From contig CP158635.1 in assembly GCA_050273025.1 (NCBI GenBank), positions 14,198,001-14,262,000 on the forward strand: a DNA stretch of 64,000 nucleotides, given 5' to 3'. The stretch comes from Cenococcum geophilum. Its lineage: Eukaryota. The position numbers and the translations under genes were made by a program. The notes under the pieces are model-generated. The model saw only the letters and a program-made list of their open reading frames with translations, did not search any database and was not told the origin of the DNA. This document shows positions 45,751 to 64,000 of the stretch, one piece after another; position 1 is the first letter of the stretch, and each line of letters opens with the position of its first letter.

Positions 45751-46871
45751 AGTATCTTATTTAACCTTCTATCTTTCCTTTTAATAGGTTTTTGTGGCGG
45801 CATACTATAGGTTAACTTAAATATCCGTGACTTAGTAGCCGGCTTATAGTAGGGTTTAGAGTAAGATTATCCAGTATAACGCGGATGCTGTATATCCACC
45901 TAGCTATAGTAGGTGCCTTAAGGTACCTATTATAGATCTATATAGGTTTTATGCACATTAGCTAGCGTTTAATAAAATTATATATAGTTCTACAATCCCT
46001 AAGAACGCGTTTTTTTTTTATATGAAAATAAGCATAAGACCTAAAAATACCTAAGTAATAAAAATGATATATTCTAAAAGCCTAGGCTCTGTTGTATAAT
46101 CGATGAACTTTGGGAAGTAATATAAAATATTAGTGTTAAGTTATTTGAATATCCGCAACCTCCGCAACGCGGATATCGTCGGAGCGCGTAAGAAACATTG
46201 GAAATGTCCCTTAGACGTGATTCCGGTGGTTTCGCACAAACGTAGTTAGTCAGGTTGCGGGCCGATTGAAAATCCGCACCAACGGAATCACGTCTGAGCT
46301 TGCTGAGGTAAAGGTGATGGAGCCCCTGGAACTCTGGGCCTTTATGGGAAGTAGCCACTAGTCCCAAAAAGGAAGGGTAAGTCTATTTTCGCGCGGTCCT
46401 CCGTACCAACCTTGCATGCATTCGTGGCTGAGAGACATCATCGATAAAGCTTCGGCCAAGAACCGTCTGACGTTCAGGTCGCCCACAAATGGCAAGCTGG
46501 AACTATCGAGTCACACGTCAGCAAAGTTCAATTGCCAGGAAGCCTTTTATTATTCCATATGTCGACTCCGATTGCATCGAGAAAATATCTACCCGAGTCA
46601 GCGACTTGGCTGAAACCGAAACCCGACAGCGATTAAGCCGACCGAGCATCTGCGTCGTTGGCCGCGGCGCTGTCCAGCCGCGTTCCCACTCTCTCTCTTC
46701 GATGATTCCACCCTGTCCATAGCTTCACTAAGAGGGTTTAGATGGAAATGAAGAAGCGAAACTCTGAATTACCTGTCAGGTAGACATCAACCCGCTTTTT
46801 CCGGACGAACAACCGGACGACCACTTGAGGGCGCACACACTGAAGTTTAACCCTCTCAATATTTCTACATA

Positions 46872-48776
46872 ATGGAGAACGACGCGGTTTTTGCTACCGA
46901 AGCTGATGTTGATGTTGGGTTTCACCCCGCCCATTCCAGCAAGCCTCCAAACCGATACTCTGGAAATGACTATGTGAGAAAGGGTAGCAAAGCAGAGTCC
47001 GGCCCGAGTGCGCGGCAGCACCCTGCCCATGAGGAGACACCGCTACTAAGAAGGGAAGACGGTGGGTACTCGGATAGGCATTGGGGAGAGGAAGGCAATA
47101 ATGAACTATCTTCGTGGCCAGGAATGACGGAATTCGAAGGGCTGCCATGGTGGAAAAAACCTTCGGTATGAGCTGCAATTCATCAACCTTTCGTGGGTTT
47201 GCTAACTCCTTTGAACCAGATCTTCTGGCTTCTACCAGCATTCCTCCTCTTTGCACTTGCCTTCGGAGGCATTGTTGTCCCAAAACTTAACCTCATACTC
47301 ACTTTAATATGCCGCGAGTACATCGCCGATCGATCCGCCGATGACCCAAACTTTACAGTGCTCCCTGTGGTCTTTGGGGGGGAGAATCCACAATGCCGAA
47401 TTCCTGAGGTCCAATCCCGTGTTGCACAGTTCACGCTATATGGGAATTTGATCTCGGGAATTCTGTCTGCAATTACGAGTCCAAAGCTTGGAGCCCTTTC
47501 GGATCGATATGGACGCAAGAAACTACTGTTAGTATCAGCAGCAGGAATGCTTACTGGAGAAATCATCACAATATTTGCTGCAAAATACCCAGAATCATTC
47601 CCATTTAACTGGATCCTTGTCGGATATGCCATGGATGGCTTGTGTGGGTCGTTTATTGTTGGAATGGTTCTCGCCCATTCGTACGCAACAGACTGTACTC
47701 CTCCGCAGGAGAGGAACGTAGCATTTGGTTACTTCCACGGCTGTCTCTTTACTGGCATCGCTTTAGGACCAATCGTTGCTGGATATATTATTAAAGGCAC
47801 GAACTCCGTCTTATCAGTTTTCTACGTTGCACTTGGTTGCCACTTACTTTTTATCGTGTTTTTGATATTTTTCATACCCGAATCGCTCTCGAAAACTCGT
47901 CAAGCCGCAGCACGTGAAAAGCATCGGCTTGAAGTGATCCGGCTTGGACCTGCAGCAGACTGGATCAACCAAATAAGAGCATTTAACTTGCTAGCGCCGC
48001 TCAAGATCCTTTATCCAACGGGGGAAGGCTCTAGCAGCGCTGTCCGTCGAAATTTGCTACTCTTAGCGTCCGTCGATACCATCGTATTCAGTGTAGCGAT
48101 GGGTGCCATGACCGTTATAGTTATATACACGAACATCCAGTTCGGTTGGGGAGATTTTCAATCCAGCGAATTCGTTTCTATTGTTAACAGCTCCCGGGTC
48201 TTCTGTCTCATTATACTTCTCCCGATCGTCAATCGACTTGTCCGTGGTCCCAGCGGCACGTCTCGTCAGAAAAATTCTGGTTCGGATAACTTCGACCTTT
48301 CCGTTATTCGTATTGCGATATTTTTCGACACATTGGGATACTTGGGCTATGCTCTTTCACGTTCGGGCACGCTGTTTATCGTCTCTGGTGTCGTGGCATC
48401 TGTTGGTGGAATTGGATCTCCTACTCTCGGATCTGCACTTACAAAGCATGTACCTCCCGACAGGACTGGACAGCTTCTTGGCGCGACAGGACTTTTACAT
48501 GCATTAGCACGGATTATCGGACCAACCATCTTTAATGCGATATACAGTGCAACAGTAGGGAAGTTCAGGCAGACTGTTTTTGTCTGCTTAGCGGCTACTT
48601 TCGGGTTGGCCTTCTTGTGTAGTTGGTTTATTAGACCACATGGTGAGTCGAAACCAAGTTTTCCGAATGATAATCACTGAGACGACATTGCTACAGTATA
48701 CCTTGACGAACAGGACGTTCCGGATTCCTCTACGCTAGATGAAGAACTCATTAATGGGGAAGGTATGGTACACTAA
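46872..48776 (+). CDS. Major facilitator superfamily transporter (tetracycline-efflux/SLC46-like fungal family), 3 exons: 46872-47165, 47220-48642, 48697-48776; 598 aa
   Basis: MFS motif A 'GALSDRYGRK' and many hydrophobic helices; GT-AG introns (gtatga...gctaac...cag; gtgagt...cag) keep the frame. Confidence 0.92.
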
Positions 48777-49572
48777 ATTCAGACCAAGAGATCTCAGCTT
48801 GAGATTAGTTTGAAGTAGAATGTCTAGAAATAGATGTTTGGAATTATTTATCTTGCCCCAAAACTTTTTCCTAGCCAAAATAACATAGAAATTCTTTTAT
48901 GGGATCAAAATTCTGAAGTTACGTTGTTTGTTTGTTCAAATCCAGCTCAGGAAAAGTCTGTCTCTCCTCTGCTCATTTAAACGACCCTCGATGCCTTCGT
49001 CCATGTATATAACGCCTTGTCTTGTGGGACACGAGATGTTAGGCTGATTTGCGGGCCAAGGAGTGGCCGTAGGTGAGAGTTGTTATGCTAACCGGGGTTA
49101 GAAAAGACTAGGCCTAAACCGTTGTTCAGTGGTGCAGTAATCAAGCTAATCTCATCTTTTAAGGTTTTTGGCGTATGAAATGGCAGATTCTAGTACCCAT
49201 AAGAGTTAGTACTGTTGTTTTTCCTCCGCTCCATGCATCCACTCCATAGACACAGCCAGTTACAAATGGTTCGTTCAAGTAAGTAAGGCGAAAGGCGGTT
49301 GCCTAGTAGTGTTAGCACTCGTTCGCAATCGTGCGAAACGTCCCCATCTTTAAAAGAGCCTCACAGCATGCTACATGTACGGTGCTTTTGCACCTCCAAC
49401 AGAAAAACACCCTCGGGCCCTTAGCTCTTTTAAAATTTTGTATAATGCTGTGCTCTGCCAGCCACTTGAGCTTTATCAACTACGTACTTGAGCCTCAATC
49501 ATAGCCGACCTTAAATGGTTGAATCCAGGCCTGTGGTACTTCTTCTCGCTGCCTTCCCCTTCCTAGCCAATT

Positions 49573-49983
49573 ATGACGGTTATTTTCAGCCGCGCTTTGT
49601 CCAGCGAGGATCAGATCAACGTGATTGGCGTGGTTCTCGCTTTCGCTATCGGTTCTCTTGCCCTTCTTGTTGGCTTTGCGACATGGAGGTTGCAGCGCCG
49701 TCGTCATTTCGCCATGCCCACCAGAAGCGGATGTCCTCACACTCCTTTACCATTCTATCGGTATGCGCTTATTGGCTCTCTATCCACTATACCAAGAAAC
49801 CTACAAAAAAGTCAATGAGCTAAATTATATATCAGATCAGGCCAACATTCACCAACTCGGCTCCAGGCTCTCGCGCCTTCCAGGGCACAAGCTACTCGGT
49901 CCATATCCCCTCCGAATCTGCGTTTGGAACGATGCCGATACTACACCGAGATCGTAGTGGAAGAATGGAGAGGGGCAAGTTGA
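49573..49983 (+). CDS. Small single-TM protein, paralog 1; exons 49573-49760 and 49836-49983; 111 aa; function unknown
   Basis: Hydrophobic helix 'INVIGVVLAFAIGSLALLVGFATW' followed by RLQRRR; phase-2 intron gtatgc...atcag; the spliced C-terminus 'ERCRYYTEIVVEEWRGAS*' matches paralog 2. Confidence 0.7.
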
Positions 49984-51394
49984 CAGTCTCGGGGAATGTC
50001 AATTCCAGTCTATCACTGCCAAACTAGTGGATCAATGAAGCCATATTTTCCTCGGTAAAAAGCAGCCCTTGCTGGTACACCATGGTTGAACAGCCTCAAA
50101 CTAACTACATAAAGCACTTATGAACCGACGCAAAGATGGCCGCGGCTGCCACTGGCAACGGCTTTGCCAGCATCTTCCTCGTAGATTCTCGGGGGCTAAG
50201 GCGAACCCACGATGAGCGTAAAGCAACCTCTCCGGCGAGGTGACCGCGCACCCTATTAACGAGAGCACCTAGATGAAAACAGCGCTTAATTTAGGAAGTG
50301 CTCTATATATTTGATATGGAAGAATCTATATCGTCTGGATCCTGGCTGAAGTGGTGGTTTGTCTCCCTGACGCAGTGCGTTGGTAGCAAGCCGTTTTAGA
50401 AGTGGAATTTTGATTCCAGTTAGGATACGGATGAACGCATCCAGTACCTCAACATGGCTTGCGGAGGAGCTCTCAGGAGCAGCTTACCTAGGAGGTACGA
50501 TCTATGCAGGCTATCTTTATCGAGCGTTCGTTGAAATTAATACATCCTTTGGGGATAGGGCCAAGCTTTACGGACCCGAAGAGAGGGGCTGTAAGCTAGG
50601 TGCTGAATAGCCACTAGCACGCTCTGAATGCTCTACATAGTGCTCTGGTACACGAACATCTGGTTCCTTGCACCGTCCGATTACACTCCTCTCACTCCAG
50701 TTTGAGGCCTAGTCACTGGACTCCAAATTAATGTCGCTTCATAGTTTTCACTGCTGTTTCTATTGGGATCCTTGGGGCCAATGTTTCCGAGTGATGTAGC
50801 AGCAAATATCCTTTGCCTGCTCGAATCCAGCGACTGGGCGCTACCTATCCGACGCCAACCGCTCCTTTTCGACCACTTCAGCGCTTACCTCTTTTAAAAT
50901 TGTCAAATTGATTTGGTCAAAGAAGAGTCGTCACTGCTGACCCCTATGGAGATCGTGTACCCCTGTCTGTGCAAATGACATCGTCAGCACGTTGTGCTAG
51001 TGTGGTTGACGCGAGCGCCATTGCTTTTTGGAAACATGACTCTATTATTACTCTCGCCTACCATACAGATGGAGATTATCAGTCCATAGGACTGAAGTGA
51101 TAGGAATACCATTTTCTCTTTGATCGTTCTATATGCCATCAACAGAACTCGTTTTACGGGAAAGGTGTATAGAACCAACTCGCTTGCCTTGACAATGCAG
51201 CTAATATCTTAATTTCAACTCATTGTTCCCTAGTGGGGTGGTGACGGCAATTGGCCAAGCCCTAGCTGTTATTGGACGAAGATGTTTGCTGAGCCAATGT
51301 GAATTAAGATGGTCCCGGCAGCACATCAGCTAGCTAAATGGCCAGCTCTCTGTTATCGTCTCCAACTAAACATACAATTGAAATCTGTCTCCTA

Positions 51395-51872
51395 TCCGTG
51401 GCCTTTGTAGCTACACCTTGACCACCCACCCTTTGGGTGGGTGGTGGACAGCTTAATCGCTAGGACATCTTAATCGCCACCCTAAAACCCACCAAAAATT
51501 AGAAAATTTATACCTTAATATCTTAACAACCACTGAATAATAGATTCTAATAATTTGGATTTAGGCTTTTATATATACTCTATAGCTTCTATTAAAATTA
51601 CATAATAAACAGTTTAGTGGTTTTAAAGATATAGTATTTTGGCCTCATTTTGACCTTATTTTAGCCCCCAAATTTTAACATCTTAAAAACTACTAAACTA
51701 TTTATTTTATAATTTTAATAGAAGCTATAGAGTATATATAAAAGCCTAAATCTAAATTATTTAAAATTTATTATTTAGTGGTTGTTAAGATATTAAAGTG
51801 TGAATTTTCTAATTTTTGGTGGGTTTTAGGGTGGCGATTGAGTTGTCTACCACCCTTTGGGTGGGCCACGGA
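51395..51872. mobile_element. Fold-back MITE with TA TSD (Tc1/mariner-type target)
   Basis: TA|tccgtggcc ... ggccacgga|TA. Internal arms ~51470-51630 and ~51680-51840 are near-perfect reverse complements; the AT-rich core looks RIPped. Confidence 0.88.
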
Positions 51873-52335
51873 TAACTGTAACTTCGAAATCTTGGCTATC
51901 GTATACTAACCTCGCGTGTAAAAACCCGAAATCACGGGAAGGCAACCAACGCCTCCTGTTGATTGGTTCATATTCTTGCGAATGTCAGATAGTTTTCCCA
52001 TTAGAACCCCAATGCTCTTCTTTAATTAAGCCTCAAAGTTCGTAAGCTGTGATTGGCATGCAAGTCACGAGAAGGCAAAGCAGTTGCCTAGTAGCGGTTC
52101 GCCAACTTGCGAATGTTCCGTTCTTTTAAGAGCCAAGAGCCTCATTCTCACCTTGCAGCATGATATATATACGCCTCTGGACCTCAAAATGCATTCCTTC
52201 GCTCATACCACATCCTACCTAAATCCGGATTCACCACCCCGAGCGTTGATAGGTACCAGTCGAAAATTAGGCACATCATGATCTCAACTTACAATTTTTA
52301 GGACGCCATAGAAAATAGTTACCACCCTGCGCAAT

Positions 52336-52739
52336 ATGATATTATCCCGCAGCGATAGCATCAATATCACTGGGGTAGTCCTCACATTTGCCATTGGATT
52401 CCTCGCCCTCATTGTCGGCTTTGCTACTTGGCAATTGCAACGGCGTTTGCAACGTCGCTCCACTAGGTCCCAGAGGTGCGTTTCGCCATTATTATTATAC
52501 AGGTTAGATAGTCCCGGCTTCCCTTTCCCCTCCTTGCTACTAGGCCAATGTTCTGCAGAAAGCACTGGGTTGATTGATTTAGACCCAGCAGCCATTCCCA
52601 ACACCTAACTGCTCAGGCACAACCTCTGCCTCTCGAAACACAAATACCGCGCTCGAATGGTATATTTGATGATTGTCTATCCAGGTATCGGTATCGGTAC
52701 CTAGAAGTCATGGTGGAAGAAAGAAGAATCTCGTCGTGA
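52336..52739 (+). CDS. Small single-TM protein, paralog 2; exons 52336-52502 and 52583-52739; 107 aa; function unknown
   Basis: 'INITGVVLTFAIGFLALIVGFATWQLQRR'; phase-2 intron gttaga...tttag at the homologous Tyr-Arg codon; spliced C-terminus 'SRYRYRYLEVMVEERRISS*'. Confidence 0.7.
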
Positions 52740-53420
52740 CTTATCTCATTTCGTGGCAGAATGTTGGTGGGGGGGGGGCACGTGCGTACTGCTCCCTATA
52801 CCCCCTTGAATTCTTCAGCGAAGCGTCTGATTTTATGAGATAAGTCGTGACTGGTTGACGCTGTTTTGAAGACGCATTTAGGAGCGGGGACCTTCATTCC
52901 TGCTTGAATTGCGTTTCTGGGAAGCTACATTGTGAAAGATTTCACGCAAAGAAACCTCAAAAGTCCAGATGGCACCTTAAATTTCTTGCATATCTCATTA
53001 GCGGCGCGCAGGAATTACTTTAAAACCTTTCCTCTCATAGGAGCAATTGCCGCCTCCGGGTGGCCTTTCACGTAACTTAAATAAGAAATCCTGTCTACCC
53101 CTGCAAGAAGGACGCAAAGAAACCGGTTTCTTCAAAGCCTCTTAAGTGATATTGGTTTGTCCTCTGGTCTCGTTAAAGCAGCTTGACTATCTCCGCCCCG
53201 TTCGAGAGATTTCAAGAACGCCAAAGCTAAGATACACATGAATCTTACCAATGGAGATACATGCTACTTGTACCGGAGGCCATAATTCAAGAGGCGCCGA
53301 TTAATAGCTTATTTTCGGCATATAAACTCTGAAACCTGGACACCGACACCAACCGACCCGTTCCTACTAAGCTTATTTGCAAAAAGCCTGGGCAGTGTTG
53401 GCTAAGAAGATTTGGGATTA

Positions 53421-55915
53421 TCATTTGTCGAAATACTTCTGTATACGATCAACGAGGTCGGCTTTCTTTCCCGAAGTCGGAAGCCGTCTTGCACCTAGCC
53501 ATTCTTTTAGGACTGGCATTGTGAGCTATAATCCGTCACTCCGTCAGTAAAAATTACATTCAGCAGCTCGGCAAATTGATATTCTTACCTTACTGATATT
53601 ACCTCTCTCATTTTGTTCCATCATTTCCGCATCCGTCATGCCTCTATCAGACGTACTGGCCGGAGGGGCGCCGGATTCGGTTTTGACGCGTTTGGCTAGC
53701 GATGTAGCGTGTGCAGCGGCGGTATCTGCACTACGTTTGGTGAGAGCTGATGAAGACTTCCGGCTCTTGGATGCCCAGTGGCGGTACTCATTCTCGAGTT
53801 CTTCGCCCCATTCAATTACATATTGACCAGCCCGCTGGAATCTTTGGTGTTAGAAGTATATTAACGGATAGACAGAGGATAGAAATGGTAATCTAAGATG
53901 TGACAGATATGAGAACTGTTGAATATGGGGATGACCGAAGAAAAAGATGGAATTCATTTTCCATCCTGTTGTGCATTTACTGTTCGCTGCTAGGCTTCTG
54001 CACAAGGGAGCGGCCAATGCTGGACCAGTCGAAAAGGTGAGGATGGAACAAATGATGAGCTTGAGAAGTGAAAGTGAAGAGGTTTGGAATTGCATTCGTC
54101 CTAATTGGAGGGAAATGATGCGTACCTTGTCAATTTGCTTGTACTTTGGGATCGTCTTGTCCTCAGGGCGTTCTGGGAGATCCTCCTCAAGCGCGATAGC
54201 CTGAAGGATGCGATAGAACCACTGAAGAGCTAGAAACCAACATCAGCCATCCACACCTGAATACCGCCATCTCTTCCTTAGAGAATCTGCTCACATGGAT
54301 TTGGATACCTAACGGGATCATAAATCGCTTTAGGTAACTGAAGCTGTTGGATCACAGATCTCATCAAATCCGTTAGTGTGTCTGTCGTCTGTACAAGTGT
54401 CGTCTCTGGATTTTGTCGTATATCGTCTGCAAACGGCAGTGGCACAATCCATATACCCGGAGGCATGAGTTGTTCGTCATTGTCACCCAGTTGTTCCGCT
54501 CCAGGGATAAGGGCTGCAATGACAGGAGCCGCATTCTTACGTGCGATGAACCATGCTATACCCATTTTCTTGTCTTTCAGTAGCTTTTGCTGCAAGGCAG
54601 AGAAGACGCGTGTAGAGCCAACATAGTCAGTTTCAGAGGGATAGATGAAGGTTGGGGTCCGTAAGTTAGCCCAGATTGGGAGCATAGACATCGGCTTGAA
54701 GCCAATGATCCTAATCACAGGCTCGCCAAAGCAGTTTCGCATGTCCTTGATTTGGTCAGGCGTGAAAGATACCGCTTCCCCTCCAAACTTATACGCCTTG
54801 CGAATCTCTGTCTTCTCAACCGTGCGTGCGGTATCTTCCGCCATCTGCGTAGTAGAGCCAGTGGCAATCTGCGCTTTTTCGCCACCGAGCCAGACATAGC
54901 AAGATCTCACTTTCTCTTGTCGCTTGATCATAATGTAACCCTTAACACCAATTCTAACTTCGGGACCGATTTCCAAGGGAAGATTAAAAAGAGCGCGACG
55001 AGGAGCGGCTTTTGAGTTTATGGAAGAAAGGAGAGACTGCAAGAGAGTGATGCCATCTCCACTTGATGAGTTCTTTGCTGCCGAGGAGATAGGAGCAGGT
55101 GAATCAGGATCTGAGAGGGATGTTCGGTAGATGATGTCCTGGAATTGTAAGTGGGGTGTTGGATGAATATAGATCCTGCTCTTACATCGTAGAACTTGGC
55201 ACGATCAAAGCCATACCCAGGCTTTGAGATAGGGAAGAGCTCAATTATTACGCCGAGATCATATAGATCCTTTGCTCGGACTGCTGCTGCAGACCTTAGA
55301 GACCTATCGTCCGCATGAGGATTGTCATTATCTGTAACTAGAAACAATCGCCTTGAAGAGAAGTTCGGTGCATTGGTGGTGAAAACCTGATTGGCACAGA
55401 ATAGCAGGTTCGACATGTTGACGCCCTCTTTAGATGGGACCAACAATTCCTCGGACTCTGCCTCATCCTCAACCAGATTCCTCAATCGTTTAACGTCTCC
55501 GGCAGCAGGAACATCAAGGTCCGCTAAGAGATAACAGTGAGGATATGCCATATCACTAGCACTTGTCTCGTCAAATTTAGTCTCTTTGGTGCCGAAGAGC
55601 AGTATGCCCATCATGTCGTTTGGGTTGGATATTATGCGCTGCTGCATCAGTTGGTAGGCACATTTTAGGGCTGCGGAAGTTGGAGAATCTCTATCTGCTT
55701 TCTTATTATCGGAGGGAGGAGGGCGTTTGAGCATTGAAGGGCTGACGTCAATTGCGAAGAGCACGGCATCTTTGACGGTTTTGTAGCCCTGAAGAATGAT
55801 GAGCAAGAGTCATTATTTAGACAAGTATAGTTCCTACAGTATCATCGATTTCCTCCTCTTCCTCTTCTTCGTCCTTTTCTCCCTCGTGTCGATTGTATTC
55901 TAAAGCATCCGCCAT
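53421..55915 (-). CDS. ku70: Ku70 NHEJ DNA end-binding subunit; exons 55838-55915, 55186-55788, 54295-55138, 54126-54229, 53589-53834, 53421-53525; 659 aa
   Basis: vWA '[11 protein letters not shown]', Ku core '[16 protein letters not shown]' and '[20 protein letters not shown]', C-terminal SAP '[10 protein letters not shown]...SGKKADLV'. All five GT-AG introns are frame-consistent. Confidence 0.96.
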
Positions 55916-56187
55916 TACTAGTCGATTTAGGTGAGGATGTGAGGATGTGAGGATGTGGTTGGCGGGGTTGATTAGGATAGTGGTGGTGTTGAGGCGCTCG
56001 AGGCAGACGCCGACGACGCGAAAGGTCGCGCAGTCACATGTTTCCGGTCTTCGATTGGGTAATAACGATCGAAAAGTAGACTTGCTGACGATATGAAAAC
56101 TTCCGGACTCCAGCTTCGCCGCCCAACATCATGCTCCCAGTACCAATTACATCCCTTCTCAATCGCTTGACCTAAAACCCTTCGACA
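55916..56187. promoter_or_regulatory. 272-bp divergent intergenic region (putative bidirectional promoter) between ku70 and hem15; contains (gtgaggat)x3 at 55931-55954
   Basis: The start codons point away from each other only 272 bp apart. Confidence 0.75.
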
Positions 56188-57526
56188 ATGGCCCTTCGCA
56201 CTCCCCTTACACAATTCTCGAAGCGCGCCCCAACCGCTCAAATCGCTAAATGTACTGGTACTCCAGTATCTTCGTTATGGAATCTGCACTTGAGAGAACC
56301 ATTCCAGAGAGGAAAGACAGACATCGTGCCACCAGTTACTCAAGATGCCACAGGCTCGAAAGGGCCAACGGCGATTGTCTTTATGAACATGGGTGGGCCC
56401 TCTACGACGGACGAAGTCGGCAGCTTTCTAAGTAGATTATTTGTAACACTTTCTAAACATAGTCATATGTCACAGCGAACTAATATTTCTACAGGCTGAT
56501 GGTGATCTTATCCCTCTTGGCCGTCTCCAGAACTACATTGGTCCCCTCATTGCTCGGCGACGCACTCCAAAAATTCAAAAGCAGTATGCAGACATCGGCG
56601 GCGGTTCGCCCATCCGCAAATGGTCTGAATATCAATCCTCCGAGATGTGTAGGATTCTTGACCAAATATCGCCCGAGACCGCACCGCATAAACCATACGT
56701 CGCTTTCCGCTATGCAGACCCGCTAACCGAGGAAATGTATATGAGGCTTATAGAAGATGGGTTTGGCGCTGGAAAAGGAGGGAGAGCAGTTGCATTTACG
56801 CAATATCCGCAATACTCATGTTCAACGACTGGATCCTCACTAAATGAACTATGGAAATGGCGGAACAGGCTCGAAGGGAAGAGGGCATCTGGAGAGGTGG
56901 ATCCTGAAGGTGCTATCAAATGGAGCGTGATCGACCGGTGGCCCATTCACACAGGCCTTGTGGAAGCATTTGCTCGCAATATCGAGGACACTCTCGCAAC
57001 CTATCCGGAGGAGAGAAGAGACAATGTCGTTCTGTTGTTCTCCGCGCACAGCCTTCCCATGTCTGTAGTTAATCGTGGCGACCCGTACCCTGCCGAAGTT
57101 GGCGCCACTGTTCATGCGGTCATGCGTCGTCTCGGGATGAAATACCCGTATCGCCTAGTCTGGCAGTCACAGGTTGGGCCACAACCATGGCTGGGTGCTC
57201 AAACGAGTGAAACCGTGGAACAGTACGTCAAGAAAGGGCAGACGGACATCATTCTTATCCCAATCGCCTTCACCAGCGACCATATTGAGACGTTATATGA
57301 GCTTGATAAGGAAATCATTGGCGAAGCAGGGCAAGAGGGAATTAAAAGAGTGGAGAGCCTCAACGGCAACCCAATCTTTATTAAGGCGTTAGCAGATATC
57401 GCAAAAGACCATTTAGGCAGCGGGAGCGCCTGCAGTCCGCAGATGATATTAAGGTGTCCTGGCTGCAATAGTGAGAGATGTCTCGAACAGAAAAGGTTTT
57501 TTGCGGGGCAGATAAAGAATTTGTGA
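56188..57526 (+). CDS. hem15: Mitochondrial ferrochelatase; exons 56188-56442 and 56495-57526; 428 aa
   Basis: Motifs 'MNMGGP', 'FTQYPQYSCSTTGSS', 'FSAHSLP', 'WQSQVGP' and 'PIAFTSDHIETLYELD'; basic N-terminal presequence; C-terminal Cys cluster. Confidence 0.97.
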
Positions 57527-58252
57527 GGGCTGCAAAAAAGCGTGGCTTTCCGCTTCCGGGTATTATATAGGTTGTATCATGGATGGGGTATGAAATCCAT
57601 GCTGAAAATATCTGAATGGGCTTGCGTGCTCGGAAATTCTCTGATCATTCCAGGTTCCGAACTTCTTAGCCAAAGAGACTGGTTAGATCCGGCATAACAG
57701 TGGAGAATTTGTTGAAAGGATAGTATTTTCTTATATGGGCAGTGCTTGTCCTGGCTTCGTTGACGCAAGGTGCGACAGGTGATTTCTTTCTGCATTTCAC
57801 TCCGTCAACTTAAATTGTCCTTGAGCACTGATCCTTTATAGAATCCATAGGTGAGTTCATAAATTGGCTATCGACACTGGAAAGACTGCGACAAGTGTAA
57901 CTACCTTTGACCAGTGACGTTGTACTCGGTGCCTATCAAAAGCTGGGCAGGAACTTCAGTCTCCATATGTGAGTATACGTTCTCCCATTCACCGCTTGAC
58001 GCCCATGCGTAACAGCCATCTGACACCATATGAAAAGGAAAAGGAAAAGGAGGAGCTCTCGATCGTTCTCTGCCTTCGGCACTAATCAGAACTCGAAATG
58101 CAGGCACCAGGCTCAAGAAAAAATCAAGCGCACATGAATCCATCAAGCTAGAAACTGACCAGAAAACATGTGCTATTCGGCCAAAAAAAAAAGACTAGAA
58201 GGGAGAGCAAGCAGCTACAAATGAGAGGAGCGCTCAGAGGTGTCCCCGAAAC

Positions 58253-58780
58253 CTAGTCGCTGATTGACAATGTTGAGTTGTCACAGATGAAGGTAACATA
58301 GCCGACTACCACATAAGTTTAGCATCTGGCAAAAATTTCCCAGCCAGAAAGAAGTATTGTCAGTCACTTACGAGCATAGTTATCTCCAGAACCCCCGCAT
58401 TGAGCGTTCATGAACTGATTGAAATACTGCTGACACAATGCCGCCGTAAATGTGGTTTTGCCCATAACACACTGGTCCCCAATGTGCACCTTCGCAAACA
58501 AGTTGCCCGCCGTGCCACTGGAATTTACGAACGGCCCCTCGAGTGGCATACAGGCCGTAATAGCGGAGCAGGCTTGCGCAATAGCAAGGTTTGCTGTCAA
58601 GGCGGGAACGAGGCGTTGCGAGCAAGTGAATTTGGTTGCGTAATTGTACTTGAAGCAGGCGTCTGGGTCCCGGGCGGCAAGATAGTTGCCAGTAGAATCG
58701 GCTATAGAATTGACCATAGGGCCAGCGATTGTTTTAGGTGTAAGGGTCACGAAGGCTATGAGGACGGTAAATAAATACAT
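58253..58780 (-). CDS. Small secreted cysteine-rich protein (candidate effector); exons 58372-58780 and 58253-58305; 153 aa, 8 Cys
   Basis: Hydrophobic N-terminus 'MYLFTVLIAFVTLTPKTIA'; pro-region ending LAAR; intron gtaagt...gctaaac...tag adds 'LGYVTFICDNSTLSISD*', which supplies the eighth Cys. Confidence 0.78.
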
Positions 58781-58976
58781 GCTAGATGAGTTGAGCAGGC
58801 TTTATTGGACGACAGGATGTTCCGATGAGAAGAAATGGTCTGTTGGAGGCAGGGTGTAAAAGCGTAAGGAAGGAGGATGACAAGGGAACAGAGAAACTTC
58901 ATGTGCAATACAAACGGAAGAAAGAGATTTTTCTTGGGAGACTTTTCCGTGAATTTGAAACTCTAACACCGTTGGG

Positions 58977-59058
58977 TATATCTGGCCTTAATATATCTGG
59001 CCTTTATATCTGGCCTTTATATCTGGCCTTGAATATCTGCCTTCAGTATATCTGGTCT
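58977..59058. repeat. Six tandem copies of an atatctggcctt-type unit ~200 bp upstream of the secreted-protein gene
   Basis: Directly visible, with 13-15-bp spacing. Confidence 0.85.
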
Positions 59059-59760
59059 CACGCAATTTTTAATTTAGCAGAGACGAAATGCTGTCAGGAA
59101 ATCAGGTACTATCTGCCGATGGCGATGAATCGAATAATAATGTTCATTGCAGGTCGAAATTCTTTGCATTTATGGACCGAATGTGTTACCGAGGGGTGTG
59201 GCCGACAAACCAACTCAACGTCTCACCTGTTTGAGGATACACCTGACCGGCTGGATTACATGAACGGATTGATACTCTTAATTTGGGCTGATTAAACATC
59301 CTTATCGTTTTGTGATGACTTTTGATGGTATATCTTACCAGATAGCCTACTTAGTTACTAGCCAACAGGGTTTTCACTTGAACCGGTTAAGCCGATCTGG
59401 CTGTTTAACGACCCGTGGATTGTGTGTCAACATTTCGTTCAGGTTGATCCACGGTAATTCAGATTGCAAGCTAATTGGTTTGGGGTGTTATTTGGCTTTT
59501 CTCCAAACCATTGGGAATAGGCTTCGTGGGTCTTATCCCAGCCGAATGTAGGCCGACCTGGAGTTATGTGGACAACTTACGAGCAAGACATTAGCCATTG
59601 GTATATCAATATTCCTTTAGATATACTTCTGTCTTCACGAAGGGTATTTGAACCACTGGCAGGCAAATCGTCAAGGCAAATTAAATCTAATAGAACGTTG
59701 TGCGTGTCGACGCTTAGACGGTCGAGTTTCTGCTATATTGCCTGTTATCAGGGCTTCCAT

Positions 59761-60887
59761 CAGTATTGAATATTGCTTATTAATATTAAATATTAAATAT
59801 TAAACGTTCAATATCAATATTAATACAAAATGTTTAATACTAAAAGATATTAAATATTAAAGATTTTTAGAGTTAAGGTGGTAAAAATATCGGTAAATGG
59901 CTCTTAGGCCTCCTTATAATATATACATATTTTAAATTTATTAGGTAAACCTATAGAAAGTAGAAATTATTAAATATTAAATTAAGTCTTATAAGGCATC
60001 GCGTATAATATCGTTAATTTTAATAATTTTTATCCCCCCCTATACTCTACCCTTAATTAACGCTATACCTCCCTTATCTACTATTATAATTAATAATAAT
60101 AATATATCCTTTTATGCCATTTCCGAGCTTAATTCTAATTAGTTTATCTACTTTAGCGGCAATAATAACGCGTTAAGCAACTCTACACTAAATATACTAA
60201 CTATAGCCACCCTAAAGTTGTCTTATAAAAGGCATAGGTTAGCTACTTTTATATAAAAGCTTACCCGCAATCCTCTCCCTTATAAAGCTATTCGCGATAG
60301 TAAGAATTAGATATAGTACTGCTTAATATATAAATAAAATTCTGTCTCCTTAATATCTATTCGCGCCTACCTAGCTAAAAAGTATAGTATAAAGATTTAA
60401 GCTAGAGAGGTTTAAGCAAAGCAATTATAAGAGAAGCGCCTCTTAAATATACTAAACAGCTTATAAGCCTCTAGATAGGTTAAACGCAAAGTTTAAAAAG
60501 AGTAAGTTCTTTAAGCTACTATTAATCGCGACGCCTTTAATAAAGCTCTTATATAGCTTATTACTATATAAAATCTACTATATAATATAGCTACCTAGCT
60601 AAAGCTATACGCGTTACTTATAACAGTTAATTATACTATAGAGAAAGTTATAATTAATGCAAAATTAACTATACTAAAGCTAATTAAGTAATCGTATATA
60701 GTATACCGCTATATTCTAAAGTTAAAGCTTTAAAGCTCTCTTTTAAAAATCCACTTCTTAATTAATATATAAACGTTACTAAACCACTATTCCTTTTAAG
60801 CAATTATTGTTTATTTTATTAAAGTAGAAATAGGGCAGTTATAGAAGGCTTTACTTACTCTACTAGAACTTCCTTTATATAGTAGTA
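59761..60887 (+). mobile_element. hAT DNA transposon 5' half, RIP-degraded, interrupted by Gypsy G copy 2
   Basis: Starts cagtattg with subterminal aatatt repeats. BED-finger remnant ~60310-60390 (de-RIP WYCSMC...IRAHLAKKHGI) and 'KIHFLINI*T' (KIHFSIDMWT, first catalytic Asp region) ~60746-60777. The right TIR is outside the window. Confidence 0.75.
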
Positions 60888-63800
60888 TGTCACGAGACGG
60901 GGGCAGTAGCTACAAGACGTATATATTTGAGGAGTCTATAAGACGTTGCGCGATTGATCGTAAGGGTCGAGGGCGTAAGGAGGTGATATACCTACGCGTA
61001 GCTGACATAAGCTGTACGCGAGGTATATGCGAGAGCACGGGGCTCTCCTATGGAGGCCCCTGCGGTAGGGTTCCGTAACACTACCCCCCCTTCTATAGAG
61101 GCGGAGCTCCGGCGACGCTGTGGTTACTATATATATATAGAAGGGACACTTAGGGTATAGAAAAGAAGAAAGGGGGGTATTGCTAAAGGCTTAAAACAAC
61201 GTTATATAATAAGGCTTGGTATCTAAAAATCCAACTAATTAGATAACTTTAACTGCTGGTTAAAGTTCCTAGACATCTTAATGATATTCTAGTTATATAA
61301 TCGCACTTTACCGCAATCTAACGGCAATCTAACGGTAATTTACCCTTATGTGGTAATATATAACGGTTTAACTCTATAAGGGCTCCTATAGAGGATTAGG
61401 TATAAAATCTCTACTTAGGCCCAGTTTCTATAGGTTTATATAGTAAAAGTCGCTAATTAGATCCTTTGCATTTTTAAAGTTTTCCTATAGTTGCCATTCT
61501 GGCTAATTTATGTTAAATCCTATATATATAGCTCTATAGTAAAGCCGTTGTCCTCTACCTTTGCCAAAGTATTTAGAGTTAATAATTCGTTTAATGGTCC
61601 ACTCTTTATAGTTCTCGTCTTCGTTCTTATCTTAAATTAGTACTAGTAGGGGTTTAGGCTATATCTACCTCGGTAAGGGGTTAGGCTAGTAAAGGTATAG
61701 TAGCTATAGGTAAAATATAGGCTATATCCCGCGGGTAGCTAGGGTAGGCGGGAGCTCTAGCTTATATACGGCTCCCCTATTAATAACTCGTTTAATTAGG
61801 TAGGGGCTAAGGTTTTTATAATTAAGTGACTTTATAGGCCTCTATATAGAGATATTATATACATCTAGCTATACCTAGTCGCTAACACGCATCTCCAGTG
61901 GTAGCGTTTTATAATAGTCGGCGAAGTAGGCCTACTTTGCTTAAGCCCAGGCCATTTCTCCCTTATAGTAGTTAAGTAGATTTTTTATACGGTCTATATA
62001 CTAGTTAGTAAGTAGTATCTTAAGGCGTTTTCTATATAGCAGTTTCTTATTAATAGGTTCTAGTAGTTCTATACCGGATTAGGGGTAATATTCCTTATTT
62101 ACAAAAAATAAGGTAAGTCCTATAGTAGTTAAGACGTAGTTATTCGCTACAAATTTACCTAGTAGGAGGTAATCCACCTAGTTATCTTAACTATAGGCGA
62201 CTACCTATTATAGGTACGCTTTTATACTAGCATTAGCGTTTTCTAGTTGCCTAGTAGTTTTATAGTAAAAGAATATAGACATCTTAACGGAGATGCTAAG
62301 GCGTTAGCAGATTCGTCTTTATATATTAGAGCCGAACTATATACCTTAGTCGGACGTAATTAAGTTAGGTAACCTATATAATTAGTAGATTTCGCAGAGG
62401 AAGGCGTTAGTAACGTTAGTAACAGCTACGCCTTTAGTTAGGACGTAGTGGCGCTCTTTTATAAGTTGGTATATTATTATAAGAATATTCTTATAGGTAC
62501 AGCCATGTCGCTTATAGGGTGGTAGGTTAATAATAAAATCTATAGCAATATCTGCCTATCGTTGTATAGGTACTAGTAGAGGGTGTAGTAGTCCTTAGTA
62601 CTTTATATTAAAGGCCTTAGCGCGCTTACAACTATAGCAGGCGCCTATAAAGCGTTTAACTAAGTCTATTATTTTAGGCTAGAAGTAGTATCGGCTAAGA
62701 AGCTTATAGGTTCCTCCCCTACCTAGGTGGCCGCTTAATTAGAGGTTATAGGCCATTTAGATTAGTTACTGTTATAGATTTTCTAAGTTAGGGATAAATA
62801 GACGGCCTTTATAATAGAGCCTATTCTCTTTTACTTCTAAGGCTGCTATATTAATCTAGCCTAAGCTTTAGAGTTTAGTCGGTAGCGTATAGGCGCTAAT
62901 AGTCTTTGCGGCAATAAGTTAATATAATAATAGGTTAATAGAGGTGTTATATGCCGTGGTAATAAGCTTATTAATTTTAGGAGGTAATTCTAGTTCTATA
63001 GTATAGAGCTAAGGTATAGTTAGCTCTATTATAGGTAGTATACCTAGGGCTAAATTCTATGCTTTTAGGATTGTCTATTATTAAAACTGGTTATAAGGGT
63101 TATCTTTAGACTAAGGAAGGTCTTATAAGCGGCGTATTAGGCTATTAGGCTTAGTACCTTATACTCTTAGCCTATATGCAATTTTAAAGTTAAAACTAGA
63201 GAGGAACTTATTCTAGCGTACTTAGCGTTAGTTTAGCTGTTTTATAGTTATAAAGTACTTAAGGTTACGATAATCTGTAAGGACTTTAGTTAGCTAGTTA
63301 GGTTTTGTTAAGAAGAGTTCTAGTTAGAATTCCTTAAACGCTTATATAATCGCGAGAAGTTCCTTATTATAGATCTTGTAGTTATATTCTTATAGTATAA
63401 GCTTAGACAAATAGAATACGACTAAGTAGAGGAGACTGTTATTACCTATTTAGGAAAGGACGCCTACGTTAACGTGGTCTAAGGAGTTAGTTTTAAAATA
63501 GAGTTATTGTCCTGGTATAAAGTGAGCTAGGATAGATGCTTTGGTAAAAGCATTTTTAAGGTCTTAAAACGCCTTCTTGTATTTAGGCGTTTAGATAAAA
63601 TATAGATATGTTTTTCTTCCTTTTACAGAAAGGCCCTTTATTCGCATTATTGCTATAAGTGGTACTATAACACCTAAGAAGTTATATATAAATTTTTAAT
63701 AGAAGTTAGCGAAACCAAGGAAAGCTTATACGTCTTTAATATAGTTAGGGGTTTGCTATTTAGTAATTATATGTACCTTCTTAGGGTCCATACGGACACC

Positions 63801-64000
63801 CTTAATAGTGATAATTAGTTTAAGGTATTTTACTTCTATAACTGAGAATTCGCACTTCTTTAAATTAATATAAAGTCCTACATCCCTAAGGCGCTGTAGG
63901 ACCTTTTAAACGTGCTTAGTATACTTAGAAGGGTTATTGTTATAAATAAGTATATCGTCTAGGTACGTAGAGCAGAAGTCGTTAAGGTAGTCCCATAAGG
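60888..64000 (-). mobile_element. Gypsy G copy 2: 3' LTR 60888-61080, chromodomain, integrase, RNase H and part of RT; runs off the window
   Basis: Colinear with 2439-5550, differing essentially by C/T and G/A transitions. Confidence 0.95.

Follow-up and report, generated by a model that had tools for sequence, protein, structure and literature searches.

We analysed a 64,000-nt stretch of the genome of the Dothideomycete Cenococcum geophilum (assembly GCA_050273025.1, contig CP158635.1, positions 14,198,001 to 14,262,000 of the forward strand), which is called "the window" and supplies all coordinates given below. It contains two small tandem genes, A and B, which an original prediction, made from the sequence without database searches, had described as a cryptic pair of spliced genes for microproteins with one membrane-spanning helix each. 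The open reading frame (ORF) of copy A extends from the start codon at 49573 to the stop codon at 49981-49983, and that of copy B from the start codon at 52336 to the stop codon at 52737-52739; the spliced products have 111 and 107 aa, respectively. These coordinates, the splice sites, and the lengths of both products were confirmed in the sequence. The first coding exons (A, 49573..49760; B, 52336..52502; both on the + strand) encode an N-terminal motif, a membrane helix, and a basic patch. The second coding exons (A, 49836..49983; B, 52583..52739; both +) encode a conserved C-terminal motif and the stop codon. The coding intron of A comprises 75 nt (49761..49835, +; GTATGC..CAG) and that of B 80 nt (52503..52582, +; GTTAGA..TAG), the latter with a weak donor. 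Both are phase-2 introns that interrupt an Arg codon directly after a Tyr codon. A profile of the N-terminal domain detected only these two copies of the family in the window, with E-values of 1e-25 and 9e-22, both copies being part of the profile.

The RNA evidence consists of contigs of the runs X1, X2, and X20, which stem from three studies and have 0 mismatches to the window, and of raw stranded reads of run X21, from a relative that is 90-95% alike to the window. Six GT..AG joints were found in these contigs, all on the + strand. Two of them, seen in X1, X2, and X20, connect the coding exons, i.e. the joint 49759>49835, which skips 75 nt in A, and the joint 52500>52581, which skips 80 nt in B and has just 28 letters on its shorter side. 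Both predicted introns are therefore removed in RNA, and since the contigs with these joints match the window exactly, the pair consists of genuine spliced paralogs, as had been supposed. Independent support for the splicing of A comes from the proteins P0002 and P0009 (111 aa, gene calls from run assemblies), which are continuous ORFs with the exact spliced A junction. The raw X21 reads contained no joint read at the coding intron of A or B, at a depth of 2-11.

In most stranded libraries, a first mate on the − strand indicates transcription of the + strand. The first mates of X21 are found on the − strand almost without exception, so that a single strand is transcribed; the GT..AG joints agree with the read strand, and the transcribed strand is +. 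From 51205 to 52093 the X21 depth drops to about zero (maximum 1.8), so that in the X21 relative the two genes are transcribed as separate units. For the A intron, the bin depth of 140.6 in X1 equals the depth expected from the spliced contig alone, showing that no unspliced A contig is present. At the B intron, the unspliced word depth at position 52508 was 147, 75, and 21 in X1, X2, and X20, versus 312, 165, and 49 for the contig with the joint.

The only records of copy A in the protein collection are gene calls on metagenomes or run assemblies, and a search for copy B that included its unspliced ORF found none in the range of 49-158 aa. The "cryptic" status assigned to the pair is plausible.

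Divergence of the two copies and selection

The exon 1 products of A and B are identical at 32 of 54 positions (BLASTP, E = 1e-18) and the exon 2 products at 19 of 48 positions (E = 1e-4), a similarity that exceeds chance. The DNA sequences can be aligned over 105 nt alone, with an identity of 67.6%, and the synonymous sites are saturated, the proportion of synonymous differences (pS) being 0.80 over 103 codons. For the block of 35 codons that comprises the N-terminus and the helix, pS is 0.77 and the proportion of non-synonymous differences (pN) is 0.17, with 7, 5, and 22 differences at codon positions 1, 2, and 3. The combination of a saturated pS with a low pN shows that the duplication is old and that the protein rather than the DNA has been kept. 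A and B thus arose by an old tandem duplication. Upstream of the genes, three pairs of short, collinear matches were observed (49292-49309 and 52077-52094; 49354-49363 and 52135-52144; 49359-49381 and 52151-52173). Each of these matches, which span 49292-49381 and 52077-52173, is weak alone (E = 0.1-9); taken together, they hint at a duplication that took in the promoter as well.

The gene pair lies in a 14-kb gene island (46001-60000) between repeat deserts with the signature of repeat-induced point mutation (RIP). In the flanks (1-46000 and 60001-64000), the TpA/ApT ratio is 1.5-2.1, the (CpA+TpG)/(ApC+GpT) ratio is 0.26-0.56, and the G+C content is 27-41%; the respective ratios are 0.62-1.02 and 1.09-1.44 in the island. 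The lack of RIP damage in two linked duplicates had been regarded as notable, and the flanks are indeed strongly RIP-like. However, there is no puzzle. RIP requires long, highly similar repeats, and the intact state of A and B needs no special explanation, because an identity of 68% over 105 nt, with saturated synonymous sites, is far below this need. From A to B, G>A and C>T changes number 46, versus 24 in the reverse direction, which is a weak excess.

A metagenome scan with the protein P0001 yielded four candidate relatives, L001 to L004; a scan with P0002 yielded none. The identity to the window is 98.7% over 6.2 kb for L002 and about 91% for L001. A and B are intact in both of these metagenome contigs, with the splice sites kept, so the frames hold in related loci. 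Two candidates were rejected as relatives. L003 is a high-GC contig in which the match lies within a 410-aa hydrophobic-rich ORF that shares only L-L-V-G-F-A-T-W-R-L, and in L004 the match covers 22 helix residues alone.

Between the window and L001, 8 of the differences in gene B are non-synonymous and 9 are synonymous (ratio 0.27, Fisher p = 0.008); in gene A, the respective numbers are 9 and 6 (ratio 0.49, Fisher p = 0.22). For both genes pooled, the numbers are 17 and 15, with an odds ratio of 0.35 (p = 0.005). The sole exon indel has 3 nt and the sole indel in a coding intron has 1 nt; both are found in B, as insertions in L001. The introns of A and B diverge from L001 by 8.0% and 3.8%, respectively. 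For comparison, five A-type sequences (window, L002, L001, P0002, and P0009) were analysed. All five have a length of 111 aa, and the fractions of variable sites are 4/13 in the N-tail, 2/30 in the helix block, 8/44 in the linker, and 1/24 in the C-terminal block. The proteins P0008 and P0035 were set aside as uninformative, because they are read-through calls of the unspliced gene, with a W in place of the stop at which the A frame terminates in the window and in L001. The pooled odds ratio, the block-wise distribution of variable sites, and the values of pN versus pS between A and B bear out the purifying selection on two separate blocks that had been deduced from the two copies.

Family membership and predicted architecture

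The profile A5, built from A, B, P0002, and P0003, was used to search 1.84 billion representative proteins; of exon 2 of B, only the last 24 residues were used, because MAFFT misplaced the first part. The search returned 25 matches at E ≤ 1e-3, and 23 of them, including two rows of the query profile, are small proteins that combine the N-terminal motif and the helix with the W-R-L and basic stop. The matches P0014 and P0027 were rejected, as they are long repeat proteins that score by summed weak stretches. When an alignment of 22 rows served as the query, 16 proteins were found. The named members are all annotated as "hypothetical" or "uncharacterized". They belong to the Dothideomycetes (Mytilinidion resinicola and C. 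geophilum) and to the Leotiomycetes (Acephala macrosclerotiorum and four Lachnellula species). By sequence similarity, A and B are thus assigned to a family of the Pezizomycotina that has no name and consists of small proteins of about 60-150 aa.

Searches for a described family gave negative results. The best Pfam-A scores of A and B were ≤16 bits, versus gathering cut-offs of 23-34. For the 25 rows of the family alignment (A8), there was no Pfam match at E ≤ 0.001, and three scattered single matches were found at E ≤ 0.01. A profile search of the PDB with the family gave nothing below an E-value of 0.5, and the Protein Atlas contained only unnamed Ascomycota clusters, with a recognition score below the usual level. 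No paper was found for four locus tags of the family, and no such fungal family occurs in the titles and abstracts covered. The novelty that had been claimed thus holds in one respect and not in another: no described family matches in Pfam or the PDB, but homologs exist in at least two ascomycete classes, filed as hypothetical proteins. The family is undescribed functionally and in Pfam, yet it is already present in the databases.

The N-terminal motif of the family, R-x-L-S-x-x-[DN]-x-I-N, is located directly before the helix. Among 24 rows, including A and B, the conserved columns contain R in 21, L in 19, S in 20, D or N in 20, I in 23, and N in 22 cases. A and B both have L-S-x-x-D-x-I-N, and A has the R as well. 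Many members have a C-terminal motif, Y-(x)-E-[IVLM]-x-[VFL]-[ER]-x-[WGR]-R, within a few residues of the end; as read from the alignment, it is present in A, B, P0002, P0009, P0011, P0024, P0026, P0036-P0038, and P0040. The Leotiomycete members end in a sequence like G-Y-E-V-A-F-R-I-G-R-S-T, which aligns with the ends of A and B. The C-terminal motif is not universal, as it is absent or different in a subgroup with E-L-E-A tails. These tails may be in part wrong, because many records stem from gene callers that do not splice, and some may be cut short. P0013 from A. macrosclerotiorum (151 aa) has two tandem copies of the N-terminal motif plus helix, followed by a G-Y-E-L-A-F-R-I-G-R ending. 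This arrangement may reflect a recurrent duplication of the unit in the family, or two adjacent genes that were fused by annotation.

The structure was predicted by an AlphaFold run with the 25-row family alignment, and the helix positions given below were obtained from column counts in 24 rows. AlphaFold predicts a single long helix over residues 4-51, with a predicted local distance difference test value (pLDDT) of 96-97 at residues 21-40 and of about 50 for the remainder of the protein. The conserved residues R7, L9, S10, D13, I15, and N16 precede the hydrophobic run, which spans about 24 residues (I15-W38), with a mean Kyte-Doolittle value of 2.36 over 19 residues. Residues 20, 23, 27, 30, 34, and 37 are small (G, A, S, or T) in most rows and form an a/d-like heptad face. 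Position 27 is a Gly in 20 of 24 rows, and all 24 rows have A, G, or S at position 34. The helix is followed by the stop sequence A-T-W-R-L-Q-R-R: position 38 is W, Y, or F in 23 of 24 rows, position 39 is R or K in 21 of 24, and positions 39-47 are mostly basic. A and B both conform at positions 27, 34, 38, and 39. The column counts and the AlphaFold helix agree with an N-terminal membrane anchor that is followed by a basic patch, as originally proposed. The tail of B ends in a site of the R-R-x-S type, and Y-x-x-[IV] is present in both A and B. The positive-inside rule predicts the side of the flanking tails. Under this rule, the helix would be a signal anchor, with the N-terminus of about 15 residues on the outside or in the lumen and a mostly disordered tail of about 70 residues in the cytosol.

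Untranslated regions and genomic setting

The 5′ leader of A (49392..49572, +) begins at the start of the RNA contig and contains upstream ATGs at 49445 and 49515. The first opens an upstream ORF of 19 codons. The second, with A at −3 and G at +4, is the start of an ORF that overlaps that of A in a different frame and has 145 aa after splicing. This alternative frame stays open in the window and in L002 and is cut to 108 aa in L001, where the main frame of A is whole; therefore, the alternative frame is not the conserved one. At ~49300-49480, an abundant set of contigs and reads was observed in all four runs, which matches up to 49480, has T for C at 49465, and then continues into sequence from outside the window (depth 793 of 1019 in X1). 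The 30-letter consensus beyond 49480 is absent from the window. The stretch that ends at 49480 may represent another locus with shared sequence or a distant joint. Within A, eight X21 molecules end at 49891.

The RNA extends about 1.5 kb beyond the A stop codon (49984..51501, +, seen in contigs). This region has three spliced introns and no ORF >42 aa. The introns are located at 50055-50114 (joint 50053>50114, skipping 60 nt), 50218-50272 (joint 50217>50273, skipping 55 nt, also found in four raw X21 reads), and 50495-50558 (joint 50492>50557, skipping 64 nt). It may represent an RNA of its own or a 3′ region prone to decay. Indels of 3 nt in X21 at 50141 and 50176 fall in a small ORF that starts with an alanine run at 50136.

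The leader of B contains a GT..AG intron of 49 nt (52253..52301, +; joint 52249>52299), the donor of which is GC, not GT, in L001. The RNA contig with exon 2 of B has 2870-2883 nt and extends about 2.4 kb past 53100 into a gene of the Ku family on the opposite strand; most likely, it represents two convergent transcripts that were joined by overlap.

Between A and B, and outside both genes, lies an AT-rich, nearly perfect palindrome that resembles a miniature inverted-repeat transposable element (51395..51872, no strand assigned). It is absent from L001 and present in L002. Its complementary arms are 51464-51550 with 51761-51847 (87 nt, 91%) and 51549-51642 with 51668-51761 (94 nt, 88%), and the RNA contigs are interrupted within it. 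The gene island further contains a major facilitator superfamily (MFS) transporter gene (+), just upstream of the pair, as well as a Ku70/Ku80-family gene (−) and a ferrochelatase gene (+).

Proposed function, alternatives, and related systems

We give a probability of roughly 60% to the reading that A and B are separately conserved spliced genes and encode single-pass proteins of the family that have a helix face and a tail motif. The small-residue face of the helix would pack on another membrane helix, either of the same protein or of a partner, and the C-terminal tail motif would be a short docking or regulatory site. The conservation of the C-terminal block is an observation; the interaction role originally attached to it is putative. 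By analogy with the animal FXYD proteins and regulins, A and B might be small accessory or regulatory subunits of a membrane protein, a function that we propose tentatively, as the most likely of those considered.

Several observations weigh against the 60% reading. The protein products of A and B are predicted, on the basis of RNA and sequence conservation, and topology, location, and partner are likewise model-based suggestions. For the C-terminal block, AlphaFold gives a low-confidence helix (89-110, pLDDT about 50). The two upstream ATGs in the A leader, of which that at 49515 has A at −3 and G at +4, may limit the translation of A, and the three introns past the A stop could be a mark for decay or point to a mainly non-coding RNA. 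The X21 depth is 2-3 over the coding exons of A versus 13-56 downstream. The B intron is retained in about one third of the word depth, which is a poor measure, and retention would yield a 90-aa product that lacks the C-terminal motif. The ratio of non-synonymous to synonymous differences is not significantly <1 for A alone. In addition, the divergence of the coding parts from L001 (4.3-6.0%) is not lower than that of the untranslated parts (4-6%).

An unlikely alternative concerns the location: the helix might be a signal anchor in the mitochondrial outer membrane or the peroxisomal membrane, rather than in the secretory pathway, and the proteins would act there. Outer-membrane signal anchors such as those of Tom20 and Tom70 have the same pattern, and the N-terminal, moderately hydrophobic helix of A and B, rich in G, A, S, and T and directly followed by a basic cluster, would fit it. 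However, a hydrophobic span of about 24 residues, such as I15-W38, suits late secretory or plasma membranes, by this general rule at least equally well, and the only mitochondrial hint in the neighbourhood is the unrelated ferrochelatase gene.

A further alternative is that the ORFs are not usefully translated and that the locus chiefly produces spliced long non-coding RNAs, with the ORFs as relics or weakly expressed. It would account for the long multi-intron region without an ORF >42 aa, the upstream ATGs of A, the X21 depth peak downstream of the A ORF, and the coding exons being no better conserved in L001 than the untranslated parts. We nevertheless regard it as improbable, since homologs are found at the protein level in two fungal classes, and pN in the helix block is 0.17 despite the synonymous saturation between A and B. 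The pooled test of non-synonymous and synonymous differences (p = 0.005), the in-frame exon indel, and the length of 111 aa that was kept in 5/5 A-type sequences also argue for translated frames.

It is very improbable that A and B are death or signalling proteins with an N-terminal membrane-inserting helix and a C-terminal strand-forming motif, like the fungal amyloid-signalling effectors. The order of helix, disordered linker, and conserved end motif of about 15-20 residues with alternating hydrophobic and charged residues resembles such effectors, and so would a recurrent duplication in the family, with the two N-terminal domains of P0013. On the other hand, the adjacent genes encode the MFS transporter, Ku70, and ferrochelatase, and no gene of the nucleotide-binding, leucine-rich repeat (NLR) type is found among them. 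The motif appears to be devoid of the G/N/Q pattern of known fungal amyloid motifs, and AlphaFold places a low-confidence helix there, not a strand. HeLo, HELL, or SesA domains had no Pfam match in A, B, or the family alignment A8. Lastly, small secreted proteins with a cleaved signal peptide, for which the small size and the N-terminal hydrophobic segment would speak, can be given hardly any weight, because the hydrophobic run (about 24 residues) appears too long and too well conserved, being the most conserved part (2/30 sites variable) and flanked by conserved acidic residues and the conserved W-R-L-Q-R-R stop, and the product has just 2-3 cysteines.

The present status is that of a well-supported, functionally blank gene family. 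Small membrane proteins are frequently overlooked in fungal annotation. As the family spans two classes and has two conserved blocks, it offers a profile to annotators and residues for mutation to experimenters.

Among the closest known proteins is the M. resinicola protein XP_033575751.1 (P0011; profile E-value 2.6e-10, 42% identity to P0002), which has 111 aa and thus the same length as A. It shares the N-terminal D-x-I-N motif, the helix, and the basic patch with A and B, and its C-terminal block, with F-P-P-N-L-x-L-E-R-C-R-Y-Y-T-E, is nearly that of A. It differs in stemming from another order of the Dothideomycetes and in its divergent linker. Proteins from Lachnellula, A. macrosclerotiorum, and C. 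geophilum (P0026, P0036-P0038, P0013, P0024, and P0030) share the N-terminal R-x-L-S-x-D-x-x-I-N, the helix with the conserved Gly, the W-R-L stop, and the basic patch, and have endings of the G-Y-E-V-A-F-R-I-G-R-S type that align with those of A and B. In contrast, their identity to P0002 is 24-32%, and their linkers are rich in Ser and Pro and contain an I-E-L motif. Those from Lachnellula and Acephala belong to another class, the Leotiomycetes, whereas Cenococcum is a Dothideomycete.

Outside the fungi, animal single-pass regulators of P-type ATPases, i.e. phospholemman, phospholamban, and sarcolipin, offer a comparison. In FXYD proteins, a short conserved motif on the outside directly precedes a helix with conserved glycines, which is followed by a basic cluster and a tail that can be phosphorylated. 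The FXYD proteins and the regulins resemble A and B in their architecture, being small and single-pass, and possibly in their mode of action, not in ancestry. They are animal proteins that regulate P-type ATPases; A and B, in contrast, are fungal and have no sequence relation to them. The FXYD family (ATP1G1/PLM/MAT8) was absent from the Pfam scans even at E-values up to 10, and the PDB profile search found no FXYD chains. Two papers describe FXYD proteins and regulins as single-pass regulatory microproteins (PMC12433444, PMC8626070). By analogy, the family could be their fungal counterpart, i.e. single-pass subunits that would dock via the helix face on a transporter or a P-type pump. The partner could then be the upstream MFS transporter, the phosphorylatable tail would tune the interaction, and A and B would be diverged isoforms, with B switched by an intron retention that removes the tail motif; this scenario as a whole is improbable. 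If the members indeed are regulatory subunits of transporters, they would belong to a layer of membrane regulation that has received little attention in filamentous fungi. A and B are, in any case, an additional pair among the small single-pass membrane proteins, which are an established kind.

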